Shown in pieces: positions 928 to 25,287 of a stretch of DNA of 64,000 nt. A program made the position numbers and the translations under genes. This DNA is from Lachnospiraceae bacterium (GTDB taxonomy: Bacteria > Bacillota > Clostridia > Lachnospirales > Lachnospiraceae). Under the pieces are notes generated by a model. That model saw only the letters and a list, made by a program, of their open reading frames with translations. It was not told the origin of the DNA and did not search any database. The stretch covers positions 8,600 through 72,599 of the forward strand of contig JAILBQ010000111.1 in the NCBI GenBank assembly GCA_024680815.1, written 5' to 3'. The first letter of the stretch is position 1; every line of letters begins with the position of its first letter.

Positions 928-3643
928 AAAGGAACCTTCACAAAAATACAGGATTACGGCAGTTGTGCTGTTTTTTGCCTGTGTCCTGCTGTTTGTAGGT
1001 ATATTGCTGGAGAGCCGGATGGGAGCGCTGCTGACCGCCTATACCGAAAGGCAGATGAAACGCCAGGCCGAAACCTTCGCCTATCTTGCGGCAGAGGAGT
1101 TTGAAACCCAGCTGGACGATCTTGAATACATAGCCTCAAAGCTGGAAAAAAATCCGGAGGAAACGAGCGTGCTGATGCCTCTGGTTTTCGATGAAACCGG
1201 AGTTAAGCAGGGACTGCTTTCAATAGACGGAGTCGCCATATACGGGGAGGGACTTCATGTACGCACCTTCGACGGTATTCAGGCTTCGTTTCGGGGGAAA
1301 AGCGCCATAACCTTTGTGGAAAATGAGGGACTTTTATTTACTTACCCCGTGTTTCACGGAAAAAACATAAAGTATGTGCTCTACCGTCTGTTTCCCACGA
1401 ACACTCTGGAGGACAGCTTTTCCATAAGCTGCTATGACGATCTCGGAGGGATCTGCGTCGTAACGAGAGACCCCCAGGTCATCATTCCCTTCAAGGATGT
1501 GACAAACGCGGAAAGGGAATGGTTCGCAAGCGAAGAGACCCTCGAGAATTATATATCCATGTACCGGGAAATGGAGGTCTCCGTCGCGGCTGCGGAGGTT
1601 TTCCCGACGGAATTCGGGGATATGCTGCTTTTCGAGGCGGAGGTGCCGGGCACGGATTATCTTGTGGAAGGCTTTGTGCCGATGAAGGTTGCCTCCGAGG
1701 GAATTGACAGAATAACCCTGCTTGTGGCCTGGGTGTTCGGGCTTTTGATGCTTCTTGTGCTCATTGGCGCTCTTTATCTGGTCAAGGCAAGCCTTAAGCT
1801 TCGGGAAAGCAACGCCCTCAGAAAAGCCAAGGCCATGGCGGAGGAAGCCTCCAGAGCTAAAAGCGATTTTCTGGCGAACATGTCTCACGAAATACGAACG
1901 CCTATAAACGCGGTTCTGGGAATGAACGAGATGATACTCAGGGAGGCGGATGACGAAACTATTCTGTCCTACTCCGCGAATATAAAAAACGCGGGCAGCA
2001 CTCTTCTCGGTCTTATAAATGACATCCTGGACTTTTCAAAGATCGAGGCGGGAAAGATAGAGATTATTCCGGTGGATTACGACCTGCTTATTGTCATTAA
2101 CGATCTGATGAACATGATCCATACCCGCGCGGATGAAAAGGGACTTTTACTGCAATTTGACATAGACCCGGATACGCCCAGAAAGCTTAACGGCGATGAG
2201 GTGCGCATCAAGCAGATCATTACCAATATTCTGACGAACGCCGTGAAATATACGGAGAAGGGGAGCGTCACCTTAAGTGTCGGTTATGAAAAGCTGAAGG
2301 ACGAACCGGACAGCGTGATGCTGAAAGTGTCCGTAAAGGATACCGGAATCGGCATAAAATTCGAGGATATGAAAAAGCTGTTTTCGGAGTTTGAGCGTAT
2401 CGAGGAGGAGCGCAACCGCAATATCGAAGGCACGGGTCTGGGAATGAGCATCACAAAGAGCCTGCTTGGCCTTATGGGATCATCCCTTGAGGTGGACAGT
2501 GTTTACGGTCTGGGCTCAACCTTCGGCTTTTCCTTAAAACAGAAGGTCATAAGCTGGGAAAAGCTGGGGGATTACGAGACAGCGTACCGCGAGCATATAA
2601 AGCGGCATGAATACCGGGAGAGCCTGACGGCCCCGGACAGCCGCATTCTCGTGGTGGACGACAATCCGATGAACCTCATGGTGTTTAAGAGCCTTGTGAA
2701 GCAGACCCTCGTTATGGTGGATACGGCAAATGACGGAGATGAGGGGATACAGTTCGCTGCCCGGACAAAGTACGATATAATTTTCCTTGACCATATGATG
2801 CCGGGGAAGGACGGAATAGAAACTCTTCATGAGCTGCGGGGGAGGAGCGACACTCTCAACATTAGCACTCCCGCTGTATGCCTGACGGCCAACGCCATAT
2901 CCGGAGCGAAGGAAAAATACATTGATGCAGGCTTTGACGACTATCTCACAAAGCCCATAAATCCCGATGCCCTTGAGAGCATGCTTATTGAATATCTGCC
3001 GAAGGATAAGGTCAGAATGACAAGCGTTTCAGGGGCGGAAAGCAGGGAGAGTCTGCCGGAGAATTTAAGGGTTCTTAAAGGGCAGAGTCTTATAGATCCG
3101 GAACTGGGAATAAAAAACAGCGGTGCCGAGGAGGCATATATGCCGCTGCTTAAGGTGTTTTACAGCTCCGCCGATGAAAACGCGGAGGCGCTCGGGAGCT
3201 TTCTTGCCGAAGAGGATTATCGCAACTACACAATCAAGGTTCATGCGCTGAAGAGCTCCTTAAGAATAGTCGGAGCCATCTCCCTCGGGGAAGAGGCCCA
3301 ACAGCTGGAGAATGCCGGAAATGAAGGGAATTTCACGTATATCCGGGATAATCACGAAGCTTTTATCGGAAAATACCTGGATTTAAAGGAAGTGCTCTCA
3401 GTCCTCTTTGAGGAGGATGATTCGGATTCCGGCAAGCCGGAGGCTGAAGCTGAGTTTATGGAGGAGATTTTAAAGGATATTGAGGCCGCTGCGGATGATA
3501 TGGACTGCGACCGGCTGGAAGGAATCTTTGAGAAAATGGAAGCCTACCGTATACCCGAAGCCCAGAGGGAACTGTACGGGAAACTCAGAGACGCCGCGGA
3601 TAAATATGAATATGAAACGATACTTTCACTGTTGAAAAATTGA
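920..3643 (+). CDS. Hybrid sensor histidine kinase: 2 TM + extracytoplasmic Cache-like domain, HisKA, HATPase, REC, Hpt
   Basis: H-box FLANMSHEIRTP, N-box ILTNAVKYT, G boxes DTGIGI/GTGLG, REC IIFLDHMMP, Hpt IKVHALKSS; SD GAGGT before ATG 920. Confidence 0.95.
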   Translation: MNKKEPSQKYRITAVVLFFACVLLFVGILLESRMGALLTAYTERQMKRQAETFAYLAAEEFETQLDDLEYIASKLEKNPEETSVLMPLVFDETGVKQGLLSIDGVAIYGEGLHVRTFDGIQASFRGKSAITFVENEGLLFTYPVFHGKNIKYVLYRLFPTNTLEDSFSISCYDDLGGICVVTRDPQVIIPFKDVTNAEREWFASEETLENYISMYREMEVSVAAAEVFPTEFGDMLLFEAEVPGTDYLVEGFVPMKVASEGIDRITLLVAWVFGLLMLLVLIGALYLVKASLKLRESNALRKAKAMAEEASRAKSDFLANMSHEIRTPINAVLGMNEMILREADDETILSYSANIKNAGSTLLGLINDILDFSKIEAGKIEIIPVDYDLLIVINDLMNMIHTRADEKGLLLQFDIDPDTPRKLNGDEVRIKQIITNILTNAVKYTEKGSVTLSVGYEKLKDEPDSVMLKVSVKDTGIGIKFEDMKKLFSEFERIEEERNRNIEGTGLGMSITKSLLGLMGSSLEVDSVYGLGSTFGFSLKQKVISWEKLGDYETAYREHIKRHEYRESLTAPDSRILVVDDNPMNLMVFKSLVKQTLVMVDTANDGDEGIQFAARTKYDIIFLDHMMPGKDGIETLHELRGRSDTLNISTPAVCLTANAISGAKEKYIDAGFDDYLTKPINPDALESMLIEYLPKDKVRMTSVSGAESRESLPENLRVLKGQSLIDPELGIKNSGAEEAYMPLLKVFYSSADENAEALGSFLAEEDYRNYTIKVHALKSSLRIVGAISLGEEAQQLENAGNEGNFTYIRDNHEAFIGKYLDLKEVLSVLFEEDDSDSGKPEAEAEFMEEILKDIEAAADDMDCDRLEGIFEKMEAYRIPEAQRELYGKLRDAADKYEYETILSLLKN

Positions 3644-3684
3644 TTTTAAGGAACTGTAACAGATCCTGAGAACGGGTAAAAAGT

Positions 3685-12066: not shown

Positions 12067-12158
12067 CATGATATGATACAAACGTCAAAAGTCCAAATGG
12101 CGTTCGAGCTGGCTCGATAAGCCATTTGACTTTTGGCGACCAAATCATGTTATGATAC
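12067..12158. repeat. 56-nt inverted repeat (12083-12138) flanked by 13-bp imperfect direct repeats; REP/MITE-like
   Basis: CGTCAAAAGTCCAAATGGC...TCGAGC-TG-GCTCGA...GCCATTTGACTTTTGGCG; flanks CATGATATGATAC (12067-12079) and CATGTTATGATAC (12146-12158). Confidence 0.7.
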
Positions 12159-12226: not shown

Positions 12227-15200
12227 ATGGAAAAAAGCATAGTATTTACAAACGACAATTGTATAGGCTGTAATAAATGCATCAAGGTCTGCAGCGCGAT
12301 AGGAGCCTGTATATCCAGAGAGGAAAACGGAAGGGCCAGAATAGCCGTCGACGGAAGCAAATGTGTGGCCTGCGGAAGCTGCATTGATGTATGCGTACAC
12401 GACGCCAGGGAATTCCTTGACGATACGGAGCGGTTTTTTGAGGATCTTAAAGGCGGGGAGGAAATATCCCTTCTCCTTGCTCCCGCCTTTAAGGCCAATT
12501 ATCCGGACGAGTATGAAAGCGTGCTGGGAGGCCTGAAACAGCTCGGAATCAGAAGAATCATCAGTGTTTCCTTCGGCGCGGATATCACCACCTGGGGATA
12601 TATCAATTACATTAAGAAACATGATTTTACCGGAGGAATATCCCAGCCCTGTCCGGCTGTGGTTTCCTATATCGAAAGATACCTGCCGGAGCTTCTTCCG
12701 AAGCTCTTTCCGGTGCAGAGTCCCCTGATGTGCGCGGCAAAGTATGCCAGAAACGAAATGGGCATAAAGGACAGGTTTGCCTTTATCAGTCCTTGCATAG
12801 CCAAAAAGCTGGAAATCGAGGATCCTCATAACGCCGGCCTGGTTCAGTACAATGTGACTTTTGAGCATCTTATGAGGTATGTAAGGGAGCACGGCATCAA
12901 AGGCGCTCCGGTCCACAGCGAGATAGAGTACGGACTCGGATCCTATTATCCGACTCCGGGGGGACTTGCGGAGACTGTCAGGTGGTTTCTCGGCGATAAT
13001 GTTTTCATCCGCCAGGTCGAGGGGGAACGCCATCTCTATGAATGGATGCATCTGAATGAAGAGAGGATTAAAAACACAAAGACACCGTTTTTATTCATAG
13101 ACGCCCTTAACTGCAAAAACGGCTGTATCTGCGGTACGGCGGTAAATCCGGAAAAATCAAAGAACGACGATGCTCTTTATGCCCTGCTTGAAATCAGGGA
13201 AAAATCCAAAAAGACACAGAGCGGAGATGCCTGGTCCGTACCCGATACCCCGGCGGAGCGGCTTAAGAACTACAATAAGCAGTTTGAGAACCTTAAGCTT
13301 GAAGATTATACGCGGGGATATACCGACAGATCCGCGGAATGCAGATACCTTATACCGGATAAGGAGGAGCTGGACAGGATCTTTGTCAGCATGAACAAAC
13401 TGACTGAAGACTCCCGTCAGATCAACTGCACCTGCTGCGGGTACGATGGCTGTGAACAGATGGCGACCGCTATATTTAACGGATTCAACCATAAAGAGAA
13501 CTGTATCTATTACGAGAGGGCAATGATTCATGATCTGGAGATGGAAAAGACCATTGCCGAGGAAGCCACAAGAGCCAAGAGCGCTTTTCTGGCCAATATG
13601 TCCCATGAGATCAGGACACCGATAAACGCTGTTCTGGGAATGAATGAGATGATCTTAAGGGAGAGCAGGGAGAAAAGCATTATCGGATATGCCGAAAATA
13701 TACGTGCGGCCGGTAATACGCTTCTGGGACTTGTCAATAATATACTTGATTTTTCCAAGATCGAAGCGGGAAAGATAGAAATCATTCCCGTGGAATATGA
13801 CCTGTCCTCCGTAATAAACGATATCGTCATTATGATACAGACCAGGGCGGACAACAAGGGACTGGAGTTTAAGATTGATTTCAATAAAGAAATACCGAAG
13901 CGCCTTTACGGCGACGAGATAAGACTGAAGCAGATTATCACGAACATTCTTTCCAATGCGGTCAAATATACGGAAAAGGGGAGCGTTTGCTTCAGTATGG
14001 ATTACGAACGCGATCCGGCTGAGTCAAACAGCGTGTTTCTTGACGTTTCAATAAGGGATACCGGTATCGGTATTCGGCCGGAAGACATGCATAAGCTCTT
14101 TTCGGAGTTTGAGCGGATTGAGGAGGAGAGAAACAGAACCATTGAAGGCACAGGCCTCGGAATGAACATAACACGCCAGCTCCTTGAAATGATGGACTCC
14201 TCCCTTGGGGTTGAAAGCGTTTACGGTGAGGGCTCGCACTTTTATTTCAGGCTGAAGCAGAAGGTAATCAGCTGGGAAGGCGTCGGAGATTATAAAGCCT
14301 CTTATAAGACCGCTGCCGCGGCAGGCAAAAAGTACAAAGAAAGCTTCACGGCGCCGGATGCCCTTGTGCTTGTGATTGATGATACCGAAACAAATCTTTC
14401 GGTATTTAAGAGCCTGCTGAAACGTACAAAGGTAAAAATAGAAACCGCGTCAGGCGGTGACGAAGGCCTCTCTCTTACCCGTGATACGAAATATGACATT
14501 ATTTTCCTCGACCATATGATGCCGGAAAAAGACGGAATACAGACGTTTCACGAGCTTCGCGGGGAGGCTCAAAATCCGAATCTTTTTACACCGGTGATCT
14601 GTCTTACCGCAAATGCCATTTCCGGCGCAAGGGAGGAATATCTTTCCGAAGGCTTTGATGATTATCTGACCAAGCCGATAGACGCCGAAAGGCTTGAAGA
14701 GATGCTGAAGGAATACCTGCCGGAGGAAAAGGTTATCGTATCGGACTCCGAAGAGGAGGAGGCGGAAGAGGAAAGCGTACCGCTTCCGGAGTGGCTTATG
14801 GCCTGCGGGGGGATTGATACACAGGAAGGTGTAAAAAACTCAGGAGGAACAGAGGAATATCTGAAAATTCTTACGCTCTTTCATTCCGCGATTGAATCAA
14901 AGGCCGATGAGATAGAAGAGTATTACAAAGCCGGGGATATCCGTAACTACACGGTGAAGGTGCATGCGCTTAAATCCTCCGCCAGAATTGTAGGCGCGGC
15001 GGAGCTGTCCGAAAAGGCGGCACTTCTGGAGGACGCGGGCAATGAGAACAATACGGAATATATCAGGGAAAACACGGATGAACTTTTAAGACAGTACAGG
15101 TCATATAAGGATATTCTCGCTCCGCTTTCCGGGAGCGCCGAGGAGCTTCCGGATATTCCGGCCGATGTGCTGGCGGATGCGTATGCGGGCCTTATGGAAT

Positions 15201-22128: not shown

Positions 22129-23226
22129 TTGCGTCTGGGAATCGTAGGGCTTCCGAATGTCGGAAAAAGCACCTTATTCAATTCATTGACAAAAGCCGGG
22201 GCATCCGCGGAAAATTTCCCGTTCTGTACAATTGATCCCAATGTTGGGGTCGTTAACGTGCCGGACAGCCGGGTGGATACCCTGGGGGAGATGTATCATT
22301 CAAAAAAGGTCACCCATGCCGTGATTGAGTTTGTGGATATCGCCGGGCTTGTAAAGGGAGCGTCGAAGGGAGAGGGACTCGGAAACCAGTTTCTTGCGAA
22401 CATCCGCGAAACCGACGCCATCGTACACGTCGTACGCTGCTTCGAGGATTCCAATGTTGTCCATGTGGACGGCTCGGTCGATCCCCTCCGGGATATAGAG
22501 ACCATAGAGCTGGAGCTTATTTTCGCCGATCTGGAGGTCATCGAAAAGCGGATTGCCAAGGTCGGAAAGTCCGCGAGAATCGATAAAAGCTATGCCGCTG
22601 AAGCCTCACTCCTTGAAAAACTCAAGGCGCTGCTGGAGGACGGAAAGAGCGTAAAAACATATGTACCGGAGGATGAGGAGGAGGAAAAGCTCCTTAAGGG
22701 GCTTTCCCTTTTGACCGCCAAGCCGGTGATTTACGCCGCGAATGTTGCGGAAGAGGAGCTTGCGGAAGACGGAGCGGGGAATCCTTTCCTTAAGTCGGTC
22801 AGGGAATATGCCGCGGCGGAGGGTTCGGAGGTTTTCACGATCTGCGCAAAGATCGAAGCGGAGCTTTCAGACCTGGAGGATGAGGACAGGAAGGCTTTTT
22901 TAGAGGATCTGGGACTTAAGGAATCCGGACTGGACAAACTTGTCCGGGCGAGCTATTCACTGCTGGGGCTCATCTCGTTTCTTACCTGCGGGGAGGACGA
23001 ATCCCGGGCCTGGACAATTAAAAAAGGAACGAAAGCTCCTCAGGCGGCAGGAAAAATCCACACCGATTTTGAACGGGGCTTTATCAAGGCCGAGGTCATT
23101 GCCTACGATGAGCTTATTGCCAACGGTTCCATGAATGCGGCGAAGGAAAAGGGGCTCGTGCGTATGGAGGGAAAGGACTATGTCGTCGGGGACGGCGATG
23201 TTGTGTTATTCAGGTTTAATGTATGA
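22129..23226 (+). CDS. ychF: Redox-regulated ATPase YchF
   Basis: [62 protein letters not shown]; TTG start with SD GAGGAGG. Confidence 0.98.
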
Positions 23227-24101
23227 TGGGAGATAAGGATATAGCGTTTCCCCATTTGAATATTTATCTGACGAATGTGCCGAAGACGTTTTCGGTCTTC
23301 GGCTTTCAGATTGCTCTTTACGGCTGTCTTATAGCCACAGGGATTCTGCTGGGCCTCTGTCTTGCCTCCTATGACCGTAAAAGCCGGGGGCTGGATCCCA
23401 ATCCGGTATGGGACTGTGCGCTGTACGGTATAATTACCGCGATTATCGGAGCGAGAGTCTATTATGTTATTTTTGCCTGGGATTATTATAAGGATAATCT
23501 GCTGTCCATAATCAATCTCCGGCAGGGCGGACTTGCAATCTACGGCGGAGTGATAGCGGCCTTCCTGACGGTGTTTATTGTGGCGCGCTCCCATAAGGAG
23601 CCCGTGCTTGAGCTTTTTGACTCCATTGCCCTGGGGTTTCCCGTGGGTCAGGCAATAGGACGCTGGGGTAATTTTTTCAACCGTGAGGCCTTTGGTGATT
23701 ATACCGACAATCTGCTGGCGATGAGGCTTCCGCTGGCTGCCGTGCGCAGCTGGGAAATCACGGATAAGATGAAGGAGCATATTACGGATGGGGTAAACTA
23801 TATTCAGGTGCATCCCACGTATCTTTACGAGTGCTGCTGGAGCCTCTGCCTCCTGCTCTGCCTGTTCCTCTACAGGAAGCATAAAAAGTTCAGCGGAGAG
23901 GTGTTCTTCCTTTACCTTTTGGGCTACGGGGCAGGAAGAATCTGGATTGAGGCCCTCCGGACGGATCAGCTTAAGCTTCCCGTTATCGGGGTGCCTGTAA
24001 GCCAGGTGGTGGCCGGTGTATGCATCATCGTTTCGCTGACGGTAATAATCTTCTTTCGAATTAAGAAAGGAAGAGAAAAGATAACAGTAACGGGAGAATG
24101 A
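23223..24101 (+). CDS. lgt: Prolipoprotein diacylglyceryl transferase
   Basis: GARVYYV, GGLAIYGG, GQAIGRWGNFFNRE, HPTYLYE, RIWIEALR. Confidence 0.97.
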   Translation: MMGDKDIAFPHLNIYLTNVPKTFSVFGFQIALYGCLIATGILLGLCLASYDRKSRGLDPNPVWDCALYGIITAIIGARVYYVIFAWDYYKDNLLSIINLRQGGLAIYGGVIAAFLTVFIVARSHKEPVLELFDSIALGFPVGQAIGRWGNFFNREAFGDYTDNLLAMRLPLAAVRSWEITDKMKEHITDGVNYIQVHPTYLYECCWSLCLLLCLFLYRKHKKFSGEVFFLYLLGYGAGRIWIEALRTDQLKLPVIGVPVSQVVAGVCIIVSLTVIIFFRIKKGREKITVTGE

Positions 24102-24131
24102 TTTTTATAAATAAATACAGTTCGGGCATAG

Positions 24132-24173
24132 ACACCTGCTGAGAGCGGAGGCTTTTGGCAGGTGTTTTATTTT
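24132..24173 (+). terminator. Intrinsic terminator after lgt
   Basis: ACACCTGC...GCAGGTGT stem followed by TTTATTTT. Confidence 0.8.
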
Positions 24174-24177
24174 ACTG

Positions 24178-24392
24178 TGAAAGTCCCGGCCGGAGGCTGC
24201 CAGGCCGAGCGCTTGCGGTCAGGCCTGAGCAGACATCGGACGGGATGATGTGTATGAGGAAAAAAGCCACACGGTTAGTCATAAGGGGGATCGCGAAGCG
24301 GTGGATCCCTTATGACCGAAGCGTGGGGCGATTTCCGAATGCACATCCAGGATTACGAGAGCAGCGTAGCTGCGAAGTAATCCGCACTTTCA
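24178..24392. ncRNA. Candidate structured ncRNA or ssDNA element (four-way junction); family not assigned
   Basis: P1 TGAAAG/CTTTCA encloses P2 TCCCG/CGGGA, P3 GATGTGTAT/ATGCACATC (with nested GTCATAAG/CTTATGAC) and P4 GGATTAC/GTAATCC; intergenic. Confidence 0.6.
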
Positions 24393-24478
24393 TCATTGGT
24401 GATGTCAGCTTTTGCGGACATGAAAGTTTGGTTATTTTTGACAAAATTTCGGGTGAAAGGATAGTGCATTTTGACTAA

Positions 24479-24563
24479 TTGACATTCAAAGCGTCGAAAG
24501 GTAAAATGTTATCAAGCTGTAATACAGCATACAGCATACGGCTTACCGCTTACAGCATACTGT
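24479..24563 (+). promoter_or_regulatory. Sigma-A promoter plus operator-like array upstream of the cyclase-ABC1 operon
   Basis: TTGACA(24479)-17-TAAAAT(24502); CTGTAATACAG at 24517 and six tandem WTACNGY heptamers at 24522-24563. Confidence 0.85.
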
Positions 24564-24606
24564 TTCGGACTTTTGAAAGAAAAAGAATTAAAAAGGAGGA
24601 CTCCCA

Positions 24607-25287
24607 ATGAAAACATATCTTTCGTACATTCTTGATCCCGACGATCTGGTCTGGCCGGGAGAACCGAATATCGAAGTGACGCACTGTACGGAAATCAAGG
24701 GGGAAAGCAAGTATAATTCCTTCCTTTCCAGTCTTCCGAATCACTGCGGCACGCATTACGACGGCCCCTGGCATTTTAATCCGAACGGAGTAAAGTTCAC
24801 GGAGCTTCCGATAGAGTATTTCTGGTTTGATAAGGTGGCAGTCATCGATGTGCCGAAGAAGCCGGAGGAGGGAGTTGAGCCGAAGGATCTGGAGCCCTTC
24901 AGTGAGGAAATCGATAAGGCCGAGCTTTTGCTTATCAAGACCGGGTTTGCCTTTGTAAGAGAAAAGGAGCCGAAGGTATACCAGAATAACGGGCCGTATC
25001 TCTCACCCGATGTTGCGACTTATATGGTTGAAAATTTCCCCAAGCTCCGCACAGTGGGCTTTGACTTTCTTTCAATCGGTTCGCCCTGCAACAATCTCTC
25101 GGCTGAGACGCACCAGATCCTGCTGGGCTGCCATTCCGACCATTTTATAACGGGTATTGAGGATATGGACTTGAGGCCTCTGTATGAAAACACGGGAAAG
25201 GTTAAGCAGGTCATTGCCGCTCCTCTTCGTATAATCGGTCTGGACAGTTCCCAGGTATGTGTTATCGCAGAGCTGGAAGATAAATAA
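24607..25287 (+). CDS. Cyclase-family metal-dependent hydrolase (KynB/isatin hydrolase-like)
   Basis: PNHCGTHYDGPWHF (HxGTHxDxPxH), VGFDFLSIG, HQILLG, GIEDM; SD AAGGAGG. Confidence 0.92.
   Translation: MKTYLSYILDPDDLVWPGEPNIEVTHCTEIKGESKYNSFLSSLPNHCGTHYDGPWHFNPNGVKFTELPIEYFWFDKVAVIDVPKKPEEGVEPKDLEPFSEEIDKAELLLIKTGFAFVREKEPKVYQNNGPYLSPDVATYMVENFPKLRTVGFDFLSIGSPCNNLSAETHQILLGCHSDHFITGIEDMDLRPLYENTGKVKQVIAAPLRIIGLDSSQVCVIAELEDK

Follow-up and report, generated by a model that had tools for sequence, protein, structure and literature searches.

In this study we analysed a 64,000-nucleotide stretch of DNA from a Lachnospiraceae genome (in the following called the window) and, within it, a structured element of 215 nt at positions 24178-24392 of the plus strand, downstream of the gene lgt. 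This element is a copy of the RNA motif Clostridiales-1 (RF01699). We consider it likely that in this Lachnospiraceae genus the motif forms the body of a miniature inverted-repeat transposable element (MITE), and that the copy in the window is an old relic of this family. A cmscan search of positions 24050-24650 with laxer filters assigned the element to RF01699 with 82.1 bits (E = 1.3e-18), the gathering score of this family being 48 bits. The match comprises model positions 1-166 of 166, coincides exactly with 24178-24392 on the plus strand and includes all four stems. Clostridiales-1 had been named as the first candidate in a preliminary description of this DNA, together with an Infernal search as the appropriate check. 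The full-length match bears out this assignment, and thereby the structure is confirmed and most of the novelty removed. The conserved loops of RF01699 are all present in the window copy, i.e. GCUUGC at the tip of P2, AUGAG/CGAAU in P3 and GGAUUrCG-GNNA...GNA-GyAAUCC in P4. These loop columns are invariant or nearly so in our alignment of the copies (A1), with GCTTGC of P2 and CGA of P3 near-invariant and GAG of P3 invariant.

A gathering-mode Rfam scan of the whole window detected two tRNAs only and missed the element, as did a search of the whole genome for RF01699. In the Infernal alignment a 49-nt insert replaces the 3-nt P3 tip of the model, and it is presumably because of this nested insertion that the default filters overlook a copy scoring 34 bits above the cut-off. 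Since copies with nested hairpins escape the default Infernal filters, routine counts of RF01699 are underestimates.

The Clostridiales-1 RNA motif was described by Weinberg et al. (2010, Genome Biol 11:R31, PMC2864571), who found significant covariation and rated it a probable RNA, neither cis-regulatory nor a switch, with no flag as a repeat. In the searchable literature mentioning Clostridiales-1 or RF01699, no function is assigned to the motif and no publication calls it mobile or a MITE. The elements described here have the same four stems, the same conserved loops and the same gut Clostridiales/Lachnospiraceae hosts as the Rfam entry and its original description. They differ from it in that the motif is filed there as a small RNA (sRNA), whereas the elements of this study occur in multiple copies and are borne by transposon ends; the window copy differs from the model also by its 49-nt nested P3 insertion.

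The genome assembly from which the window originates (G000; 2.86 Mb, 145 contigs, 92.9% complete) contains 24 further RF01699 matches, 21 of them above the cut-off and several at contig ends. With the window copy included there are at least 22 copies above the cut-off, and the element is accordingly not solitary. BLAST adds shorter fragments, one of them in the window itself at 12074-12144. The subfamilies are quite different in the sequences of P1 and P2 but alike in their folds. Copy numbers vary strongly within the genus, from 0 to at least 64 RF01699 matches per genome among 18 genomes, and no match was found in 11 of 12 genomes sampled from other families of the order. The P4 motif GGATTGCGRGAG-N9-17-CGRAGCAATCC was detected in at least 120 contigs of named genomes, nearly all of them Lachnospiraceae, including Blautia, Butyrivibrio, Agathobacter, Bilifractor, Fusicatenibacter, Hungatella, Dorea and Muricomes as well as many metagenome-assembled genomes from human, mouse, ruminant and chicken guts. 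In the related genome G013, an identical core of 157 nt is shared by 14 of the 20 copies fetched. Truncated or internally deleted copies are present, too (C5, C133, C134).

The fragment at 12074-12144 is a 71-nt member consisting of the left repeat GATACAAACGTCAAAAGTC, the P2 hairpin only and the right repeat ACTTTTGGCGACCAAATC. Its flanks, ATGATAT and ATGTTAT, agree at 5 of 7 positions, and it is located about 80 nt upstream of an open reading frame (ORF) starting at 12227. A further single observation concerns the copies L096 in genome G010 and L028 in G013. One insertion, with identical flanks (duplication TTAGCAT), is present here in two genomes counted as different species. Either some insertions predate the species split or the two genomes are very close.

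The younger subfamilies exhibit the hallmarks of MITEs. Terminal inverted repeats of 17-18 bp are found in the GATGT.AGGGTCAAAAG and GAT..CGCCAAAAGT subfamilies. The left inverted repeat (GAT-N5-SGYCAAAAG) comprises the 5' strand of P1 and the start of P2, and a second, intact inverted repeat lies inside a 3' extension of 25-35 nt. In G013, 13 of the 20 copies carry such an extension of 34 nt, which terminates in ACTTTTGACCCTTACATC, an inverted copy of the 5' end (GATGTCAGGGTCAAAAG). The core of these elements looks like a repeat-to-repeat palindrome, the right half of which is split by P3 and P4. Matches to the inverted repeat are numerous in G013, with 236 at no more than 2 mismatches compared to 1 for a reversed-pattern control, and repeats of this type were detected in 34 of the 47 genomes of the genus, the number of matches per genome ranging from 0 to 191.

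With the element boundaries set at GATG...CATC, perfect 7-bp flanking repeats were found in 8 of the 13 long-form copies of G013; one more was obtained after a shift of 1 nt, and 2 copies match at 6 of 7 positions. The duplicated heptamers (TTAACAT, ATATAAT, TTATGAT, TTAGCAT, ATAGAAT, ATGACTT and TTTGTAT) are AT-rich, the target consensus being roughly WTANNAT over 7 bp. To these come further copies from 11 genomes. Sixty were fetched, 59 of which had enough downstream flank for the duplication to be sought within 60 nt downstream. A perfect 7-bp duplication was present in 20 of the 59, always directly after the right repeat, compared to a mean of 0.7 and a maximum of 4 in a flank-swapping control. 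The genome of the window contains such duplications as well, at C122 (ATAACAT) and C45:24255 (ATAGAAT). The AT-rich boxes preceding the copies were at first taken for -10 elements of promoters, an interpretation dropped once the 7-bp duplications had been aligned, and a duplication length of 6 bp was likewise given up when the alignment yielded 7 bp. Derivatives of several sizes accompany the longer forms: repeat-to-repeat palindromes of 36-38 nt, P2-only forms of 70-90 nt, a form with P1 and P4 only, and composites with a second MITE family.

The second MITE family has the ends GTTACTGTTCA...TGAACAGTAAC and an 8-9-bp duplication (AATCCGTG) and was found inserted into Clostridiales-1 copies between P4 and the 3' strand of P1. 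Insertions of this kind are L037, L038 and L031, all in G013. At another locus of this genome, L032 (G013:C1:465300-466111), a hairpin of the second MITE is interrupted, at a contig end, by a reverse-strand sequence that looks like domains V and VI of a group II intron and thus like its 3' end.

A candidate for the mobilising enzyme was detected in the same genome as the window. At G000:C13:57573-58138, about 170 nt beyond a solo repeat (GATTGAAACGCCAAAAGT), the coding sequence of a DUF772 transposase begins, of which 132 codons are present before the contig ends. This repeat is close to the ends of the MITEs of the genome, e.g. to the right repeat of C122 (GATTGAGACGCCAAAAGT). The remainder of the insertion sequence is missing from the assembly, so that at least one autonomous partner of these MITEs is probably present in the genome. 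Among the solo repeat-like motifs of this genome the one on C13 was the only one leading to a transposase; most of the others are situated beside ordinary genes. Relatives of the C13 insertion sequence at full length are present in four other genomes. In G044 (L057) a transposase of 561 aa lies between GATGTTGGGGTCAAAAGCCCCT and AGGGTCTTTTGACCCTTACATC (ends GATGTTGGGGTCAAAAG... and ...CTTTTGACCCTTACATC) with ATTATAT on both sides; over 17 nt at its right end, this element shows no mismatch to the right repeat of the MITEs in G013, G010 and G007. The copy in G015 (L056) has the end GAGTCGCCCGACAAATG and the duplication ATATTAT, that in G047 (L054) the end GATTAGGGTGTCAAAAG and the duplication CTTATAG, and in the G013 copy (C15, reading frame of 545 aa) one end is cut off by the contig end. 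Common to insertion sequences and MITEs are the GA...TC ends, the 7-bp duplication and the AT-rich heptamer target. The transposases (542-561 aa) show the Pfam domains DUF772, DDE_Tnp_1 and DDE_Tnp_1_6, and their best NCBIfam match is IS1182 (NF033551) over nearly the whole model with 157, 141 and 106 bits. We refer to them as IS1182-like, since IS1182 is the best family but the score is below its cut-off. No RF01699 match was found inside the insertion-sequence loci, so that the P2 tip, P3 and P4 are to be regarded as cargo and not as the remnant of a deleted insertion sequence.

Comparison with related species revealed sites with and without the element. The relatives used for this purpose are different species with 65-80% DNA identity, and the comparison accordingly shows presence or absence and not strain-level empty sites or excision footprints. 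FlgG ends with ...ANQLKR in nine related species, where 3-25 nt separate the gene from the next gene start. In the genome of the window a 163-nt copy (G000:C130:64764-64926) follows flgG, beginning in its last codon and stop codon (CGA TAA), and a distance of 16 nt separates the copy from the next gene start. The protein still ends with ...QLKR even though the 5' strand of P1 forms the last Arg codon and the TAA. Similarly, a copy between the genes for HPF and thiolase is absent in every relative in which these genes adjoin. Orthologous retention of old copies was not found at these two operon sites, both insertions being specific to the lineage of the window's genome. RF01699 is also absent from the regions downstream of lgt in 11 related species. 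Empty sites in relatives, a check suggested at the outset, were thus found at the level of species both for lgt (11 species) and for flgG (nine species).

Many of the copies reside within operons. Eleven copies in the genome of the window start between -6 and +7 nt from the stop codon of a co-oriented upstream ORF, and one copy is antisense. In several of these eleven the TGA or TAA of the element itself serves as the stop codon, and a ribosome-binding site and start codon follow 15-60 nt later. Of the young copies of G013 between co-directional genes, 10 are in sense and 2 in antisense orientation. Part of the placement at stop codons may be due to the target heptamers, in which stop triplets are frequent. 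One copy (G000:C64:7554-7723) is located in a tRNA cluster, starting 2 nt after tRNA-Arg(TCT) and ending 32 nt before tRNA-His(GTG) as annotated with aragorn. L092 in G004 and L112 in G016 are two further copies that seem to be situated behind the 3' end of a tRNA.

The RNA fold of the element in the window consists of a closing helix with three arms and has a minimum free energy (MFE) of -113.6 kcal/mol. Dinucleotide-preserving shuffles reached -71.4 +/- 4.1 kcal/mol and none of 200 was as good, corresponding to z = -10.3 for the 215-nt element. The reverse strand is weaker (-95.3 kcal/mol, z = -7.4). The four-way junction proposed in the preliminary description is thereby substantiated. All stems that it named were found at their positions, the only correction being T24184, which had been assigned to P2 and pairs in P1 instead. 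The MFE structure comprises the following parts:

24178-24184 / 24386-24392, plus strand: P1, UGAAAGU/ACUUUCA
24185-24244, plus strand: P2, a long hairpin with the base CCCG/CGGG and inner helices up to a CUUG loop
24247-24347, plus strand: P3, composed of GAUGUGUAU/AUGCACAUC, GGAAA/UUUCC, GCC-CACG/CGUG-GGC and then GUCAUAAGGGG/UCCCUUAUGAC
within 24247-24347, plus strand: P3 internal loops, one with tandem G-A (AUGAG / CGAAU) and the other A-rich
24274-24321 (bounds approximate), plus strand: P3-tip insertion of 49 nt, containing the 39-nt hairpin GTCATAAGGGGGATCGCGAAGCGGTGGATCCCTTATGAC at 24278-24316
24350-24383, plus strand: P4, GGAUUAC-GAGA-GCAGC-GUA-GCUGC-GAA-GUAAUCC, the most sequence-conserved part of the family

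The hairpin in the P3 tip belongs to a module of 39-41 nt, GTCATAAGG...CCTTATGAC, which occurs four times in the genome (window 24278-24316, G000:C14:3536-3576 and 3639-3679, and G000:C48:9002-9040), capping another hairpin in each case. It was not seen among about 270 loci fetched from relatives and looks like a small insertion module in its own right. Other large Clostridiales-1 copies contain different nested hairpins. An ORF of 107 aa overlapping the element in the window has no Pfam match.

This architecture is maintained throughout the family. Of 75 unique copies, 67 have an MFE structure with a closing helix and exactly three arms, and most of the others differ by a P1 bulge only. As the MAFFT alignment A1 misaligns P1 and P2, base pairs were counted on anchored positions, with base i of P1 paired to base L+1-i. 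Over seven positions of 74 unique copies, 96.7% of the P1 pairs are canonical, compared to 39% when the partner is slid by one. In 177 cells both sides are changed, individual positions show as many as six pair types, and wobble pairs are represented by 16 G:U versus 1 A:C. With the invariant GAG/CGA loop as the anchor, 85% of the pairs in the basal P3 helix are canonical, compared to 29% with the partner slid by one. By these counts, the four-way junction covaries strongly across copies. The Rfam sense strand is the more stable one in 75 of 75 copies, on average by 9.4 kcal/mol, a gap originating mostly from the purine-rich loops and not from G:U pairs. Covariation and one-strand stability together suggest that the fold may be under selection in the transcript.

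Several observations weigh against the interpretation as a MITE or limit its reach. The copies share ancestry, and the counts for covariation and strand asymmetry overstate their independence; they are supportive, not decisive. The transposase, with 157 bits, is below the IS1182 equivalog cut-off of NF033551 (270 bits). It was found in only 5-6 of the 47 genomes of the genus and is missing from G010, a complete genome with 18 copies. G013, despite its burst of copies, holds only an insertion sequence with different ends. No transposase was found between distant pairs of inverted repeats in G013, the pair at C4:30728-33490 enclosing the genes for a thiolase and a hibernation factor, and the solo repeats near contig ends in this genome are mini-palindromes or composite elements. 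As to the window copy, it lacks a long inverted repeat, having only the 7-bp P1, and its flanks at the GA..TC ends are different (TTACTGT versus ATCATTG) with no 7-bp duplication. Its putative place in the mobile class rests on family resemblance. The mobile nature suggested in the preliminary description is therefore supported at the family level by inverted repeats, 7-bp duplications and an element with a matching transposase, but does not extend to a clear duplication at the window copy.

The window copy belongs to an older group with GAAAGT ends, its nearest paralogue being C111 with 86-89% identity over parts. P1 (7 bp, TGAAAGT/ACTTTCA) is its sole inverted repeat, and its P2 is devoid of the CAAAAG motif. 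The surroundings of the element comprise the following features:

23223-24101, plus strand: lgt, encoding prolipoprotein diacylglyceryl transferase (PF01790 LGT, E = 1.4e-67)
24130-24175, plus strand: terminator-like hairpin and T-run of lgt, with 17 pairs, 7 of them G-C, followed by TATTTTACTG (consensus scan)
24171-24177, plus strand: heptamer TTACTGT directly 5' of P1
24393-24431, plus strand: 3' extension travelling with the sub-group, 93% identity to G000:C5:8773-8855, through ..GTTTGG
24400-24423, plus strand: mini-palindrome TGATGTCAGCTTTTGCGGACATGA inside the 3' extension, with a similar hairpin after the C90 copy
24432-24438, plus strand: TTATTTT, also present at 24167-24173; the pair is a weak candidate for a 7-bp duplication flanking a unit of 258 nt in the terminator T-run

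By eye, TTACTNT precedes GAAAGT in four copies of the sub-group, i.e. the window copy, C90, C111 and locus L103 of G010; due to this recurrence it may be part of the element and not flanking DNA. On the 3' side, the similarity to the internally deleted C5 copy extends to 24431 and includes the mini-palindrome. We attach little weight to the TTATTTT pair, which may have arisen by chance, since T is abundant here and the pair emerged from a comparison of several boundaries. No partner element with GAAAGT-type ends was found for the subfamily of the window copy. A 24-nt mini-palindrome (TGATGTCAG-N6-CTGACATNA) is located 7-8 nt past three copies of the GAAAGT type, those in the window, at G000:C90:9491-9656 and at G000:C5:8809-8912. 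Its arm equals the first 8 nt of an inverted repeat that is abundant in sister species and, as a full repeat, has 0 matches in the genome of the window.

The gene lgt is preceded by a gene for a YchF-like GTPase, and the gene after the element encodes a cyclase-family protein. The terminator hairpin and T-run of lgt stop three bases short of the element. In the consensus scan, the only sigma-70-like promoter matches were 24438-24465 and 24479-24507, i.e. 46-115 nt downstream of the element; there was no promoter-like site upstream of 24178 on the plus strand and no terminator-like site after 24392. The location after the lgt terminator and before the next promoter, as described earlier, is consistent with this arrangement. 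There is no gene on record with the exact Lgt sequence, and an exact 28-mer from the lgt terminator was absent from the metagenome contigs scanned. At an empty lgt site the T-run of the terminator would be expected to continue straight into ...TTATTTTTGAC.

According to the model that we favour, the IS1182-like transposase would move Clostridiales-1 MITEs in trans by the ordinary cut-or-copy and paste reaction of DDE enzymes. The four-way junction would be a cargo kept by selection on the sense-strand transcript, the copies presumably being transcribed as part of host mRNAs. As P1 closes the element, a copy between a stop codon and a ribosome-binding site probably forms a compact knot and does little harm to the operon. 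The window copy would have lost the long inverted repeat and a clear duplication and gained the nested hairpin in P3. Most likely it is now an old relic that no longer moves and that affects lgt and the downstream operon hardly, if at all.

A bolder version, which we regard as rather doubtful, is that the junction is not a passive passenger but an RNA module that lets MITEs live inside operons. Pairing of P1 would then return the stop codon to the vicinity of the downstream ribosome-binding site and so preserve translational coupling, and the closed knot would provide the transcript with a nuclease-resistant structure. The conserved purine-rich loops of P3 and P4 would serve as binding sites for a host factor, and old copies devoid of ends, including that of the window, would be kept or tolerated for their behaviour as RNA. 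A related proposal is that the host has adopted the fold as a cis-acting mRNA element, i.e. as a stabiliser, a processing site or a spacer between stop and start, and that the window copy was kept in the 3' region of lgt for this reason. The sense orientation bias is in line with this, as is the position of copies that begin at stop codons and end 15-60 nt ahead of the next start codon. Furthermore, older subfamilies without long repeats or duplications keep the four helices by compensatory changes, which is visible even between the window copy and C111. The copy in the window is, however, probably poorly transcribed, being situated after the lgt terminator and before the next promoter, the lgt site is empty in 11 relatives, and the truncated and internally deleted copies indicate that copies decay. 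We therefore consider adoption by the host improbable.

Independent transcription is in line with the entry in Rfam and with Weinberg et al. (PMC2864571), who classified the motif as a probable non-cis-regulatory RNA. The numerous copies would in this case be a paralogous family of trans-acting sRNA genes, in agreement with the strand-specific fold, with RNA-type motifs (CUUG loop, tandem G-A, GNNA/GNA internal loops) and with AT-rich, -10-like heptamers directly upstream of most copies. These heptamers are, however, target-site duplications, and since they touch the element, a transcript initiated at them would not include the 5' strand of P1. The window copy has no promoter match upstream and no canonical terminator after it, and many copies lie inside operons between a stop codon and the next ribosome-binding site. 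Identical copies, inverted repeats, duplications and a range from 0 to at least 64 copies per genome correspond to the behaviour of a transposon, and an sRNA gene is in our opinion quite improbable. A repeat of the single-stranded DNA (ssDNA) type, REPIN/RAYT-like or derived from IS200/IS605 and moved by an HUH enzyme, would account for a complex strand-specific fold and for the absence of a duplication in the subfamily of the window copy. The TTACT before four copies even recalls the TTAC target of IS608. This explanation is highly improbable in view of the fixed 7-bp duplications of the younger subfamilies and their inverted-repeat ends, which match a DDE insertion sequence. No match to Y1_Tnp (PF01797) was found in the genome of the window (92.9% complete), control genomes being positive. 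The ssDNA element put forward as one option in the preliminary description thus finds no counterpart, since the mobiliser reads as an IS1182-like DDE enzyme, acting on duplex DNA, and not as an HUH enzyme.

Clostridiales-1 elements resemble MITEs of the IS1182 family in being non-coding, in ends identical to those of a transposase-bearing element, in the fixed length of the duplication and in copy bursts, and the transposase, too, fits with its DUF772 and DDE domains and IS1182 as the best family match. In contrast to IS1182-derived MITEs, the body of Clostridiales-1 is a foreign, covarying four-way junction and not an internally deleted insertion sequence. IS1272, a member of the IS1182 family, was reported to recognise stem-loop or cruciform targets and to leave no duplication (PMC5678879), whereas Clostridiales-1 MITEs make ordinary 7-bp duplications at AT-rich heptamers. 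Given the stem-loop targets of IS1272, the structure may also have a role in transposition, but its strand asymmetry argues for a function as RNA.

The ERIC, BOX and Correia/NEMIS repeats of enterobacteria, pneumococci and neisseriae are small non-coding repeats in transcribed intergenic regions and are essentially long imperfect hairpins. Their RNA folding, compensatory changes, modular or truncated forms and possible effects on the fate of mRNAs are comparable to what we observed for Clostridiales-1. Clostridiales-1, by contrast, forms a junction of three arms whose internal loops are conserved and rich in purines, and a matching autonomous element was identified. With the REP/REPIN sequences mobilised by RAYT it shares the character of dispersed, structured, extragenic repeats, often at the 3' ends of genes. 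REPINs, however, have no target duplications and need a single-copy Y1 transposase, whereas Clostridiales-1 has 7-bp duplications and no Y1 transposase was found.

The element of the window is, according to these results, not a new regulator of lgt or of the adjacent catabolic island. For practical purposes, it should be considered that Clostridiales-1 copies break draft assemblies and that those with nested hairpins evade the default Infernal filters. Rfam has listed Clostridiales-1 for 16 years as an sRNA that is very common in the gut and has no assigned function. In this Lachnospiraceae genus it probably spreads as a MITE, as indicated by inverted repeats, duplications, identical copies, filled and empty sites and an IS1182-like element. 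Counts of Clostridiales-1 in metagenomes then reflect the transposon load and not the expression of a regulatory RNA. This raises the question why a MITE of the DDE type carries a deeply conserved, strand-specific RNA fold with three arms.

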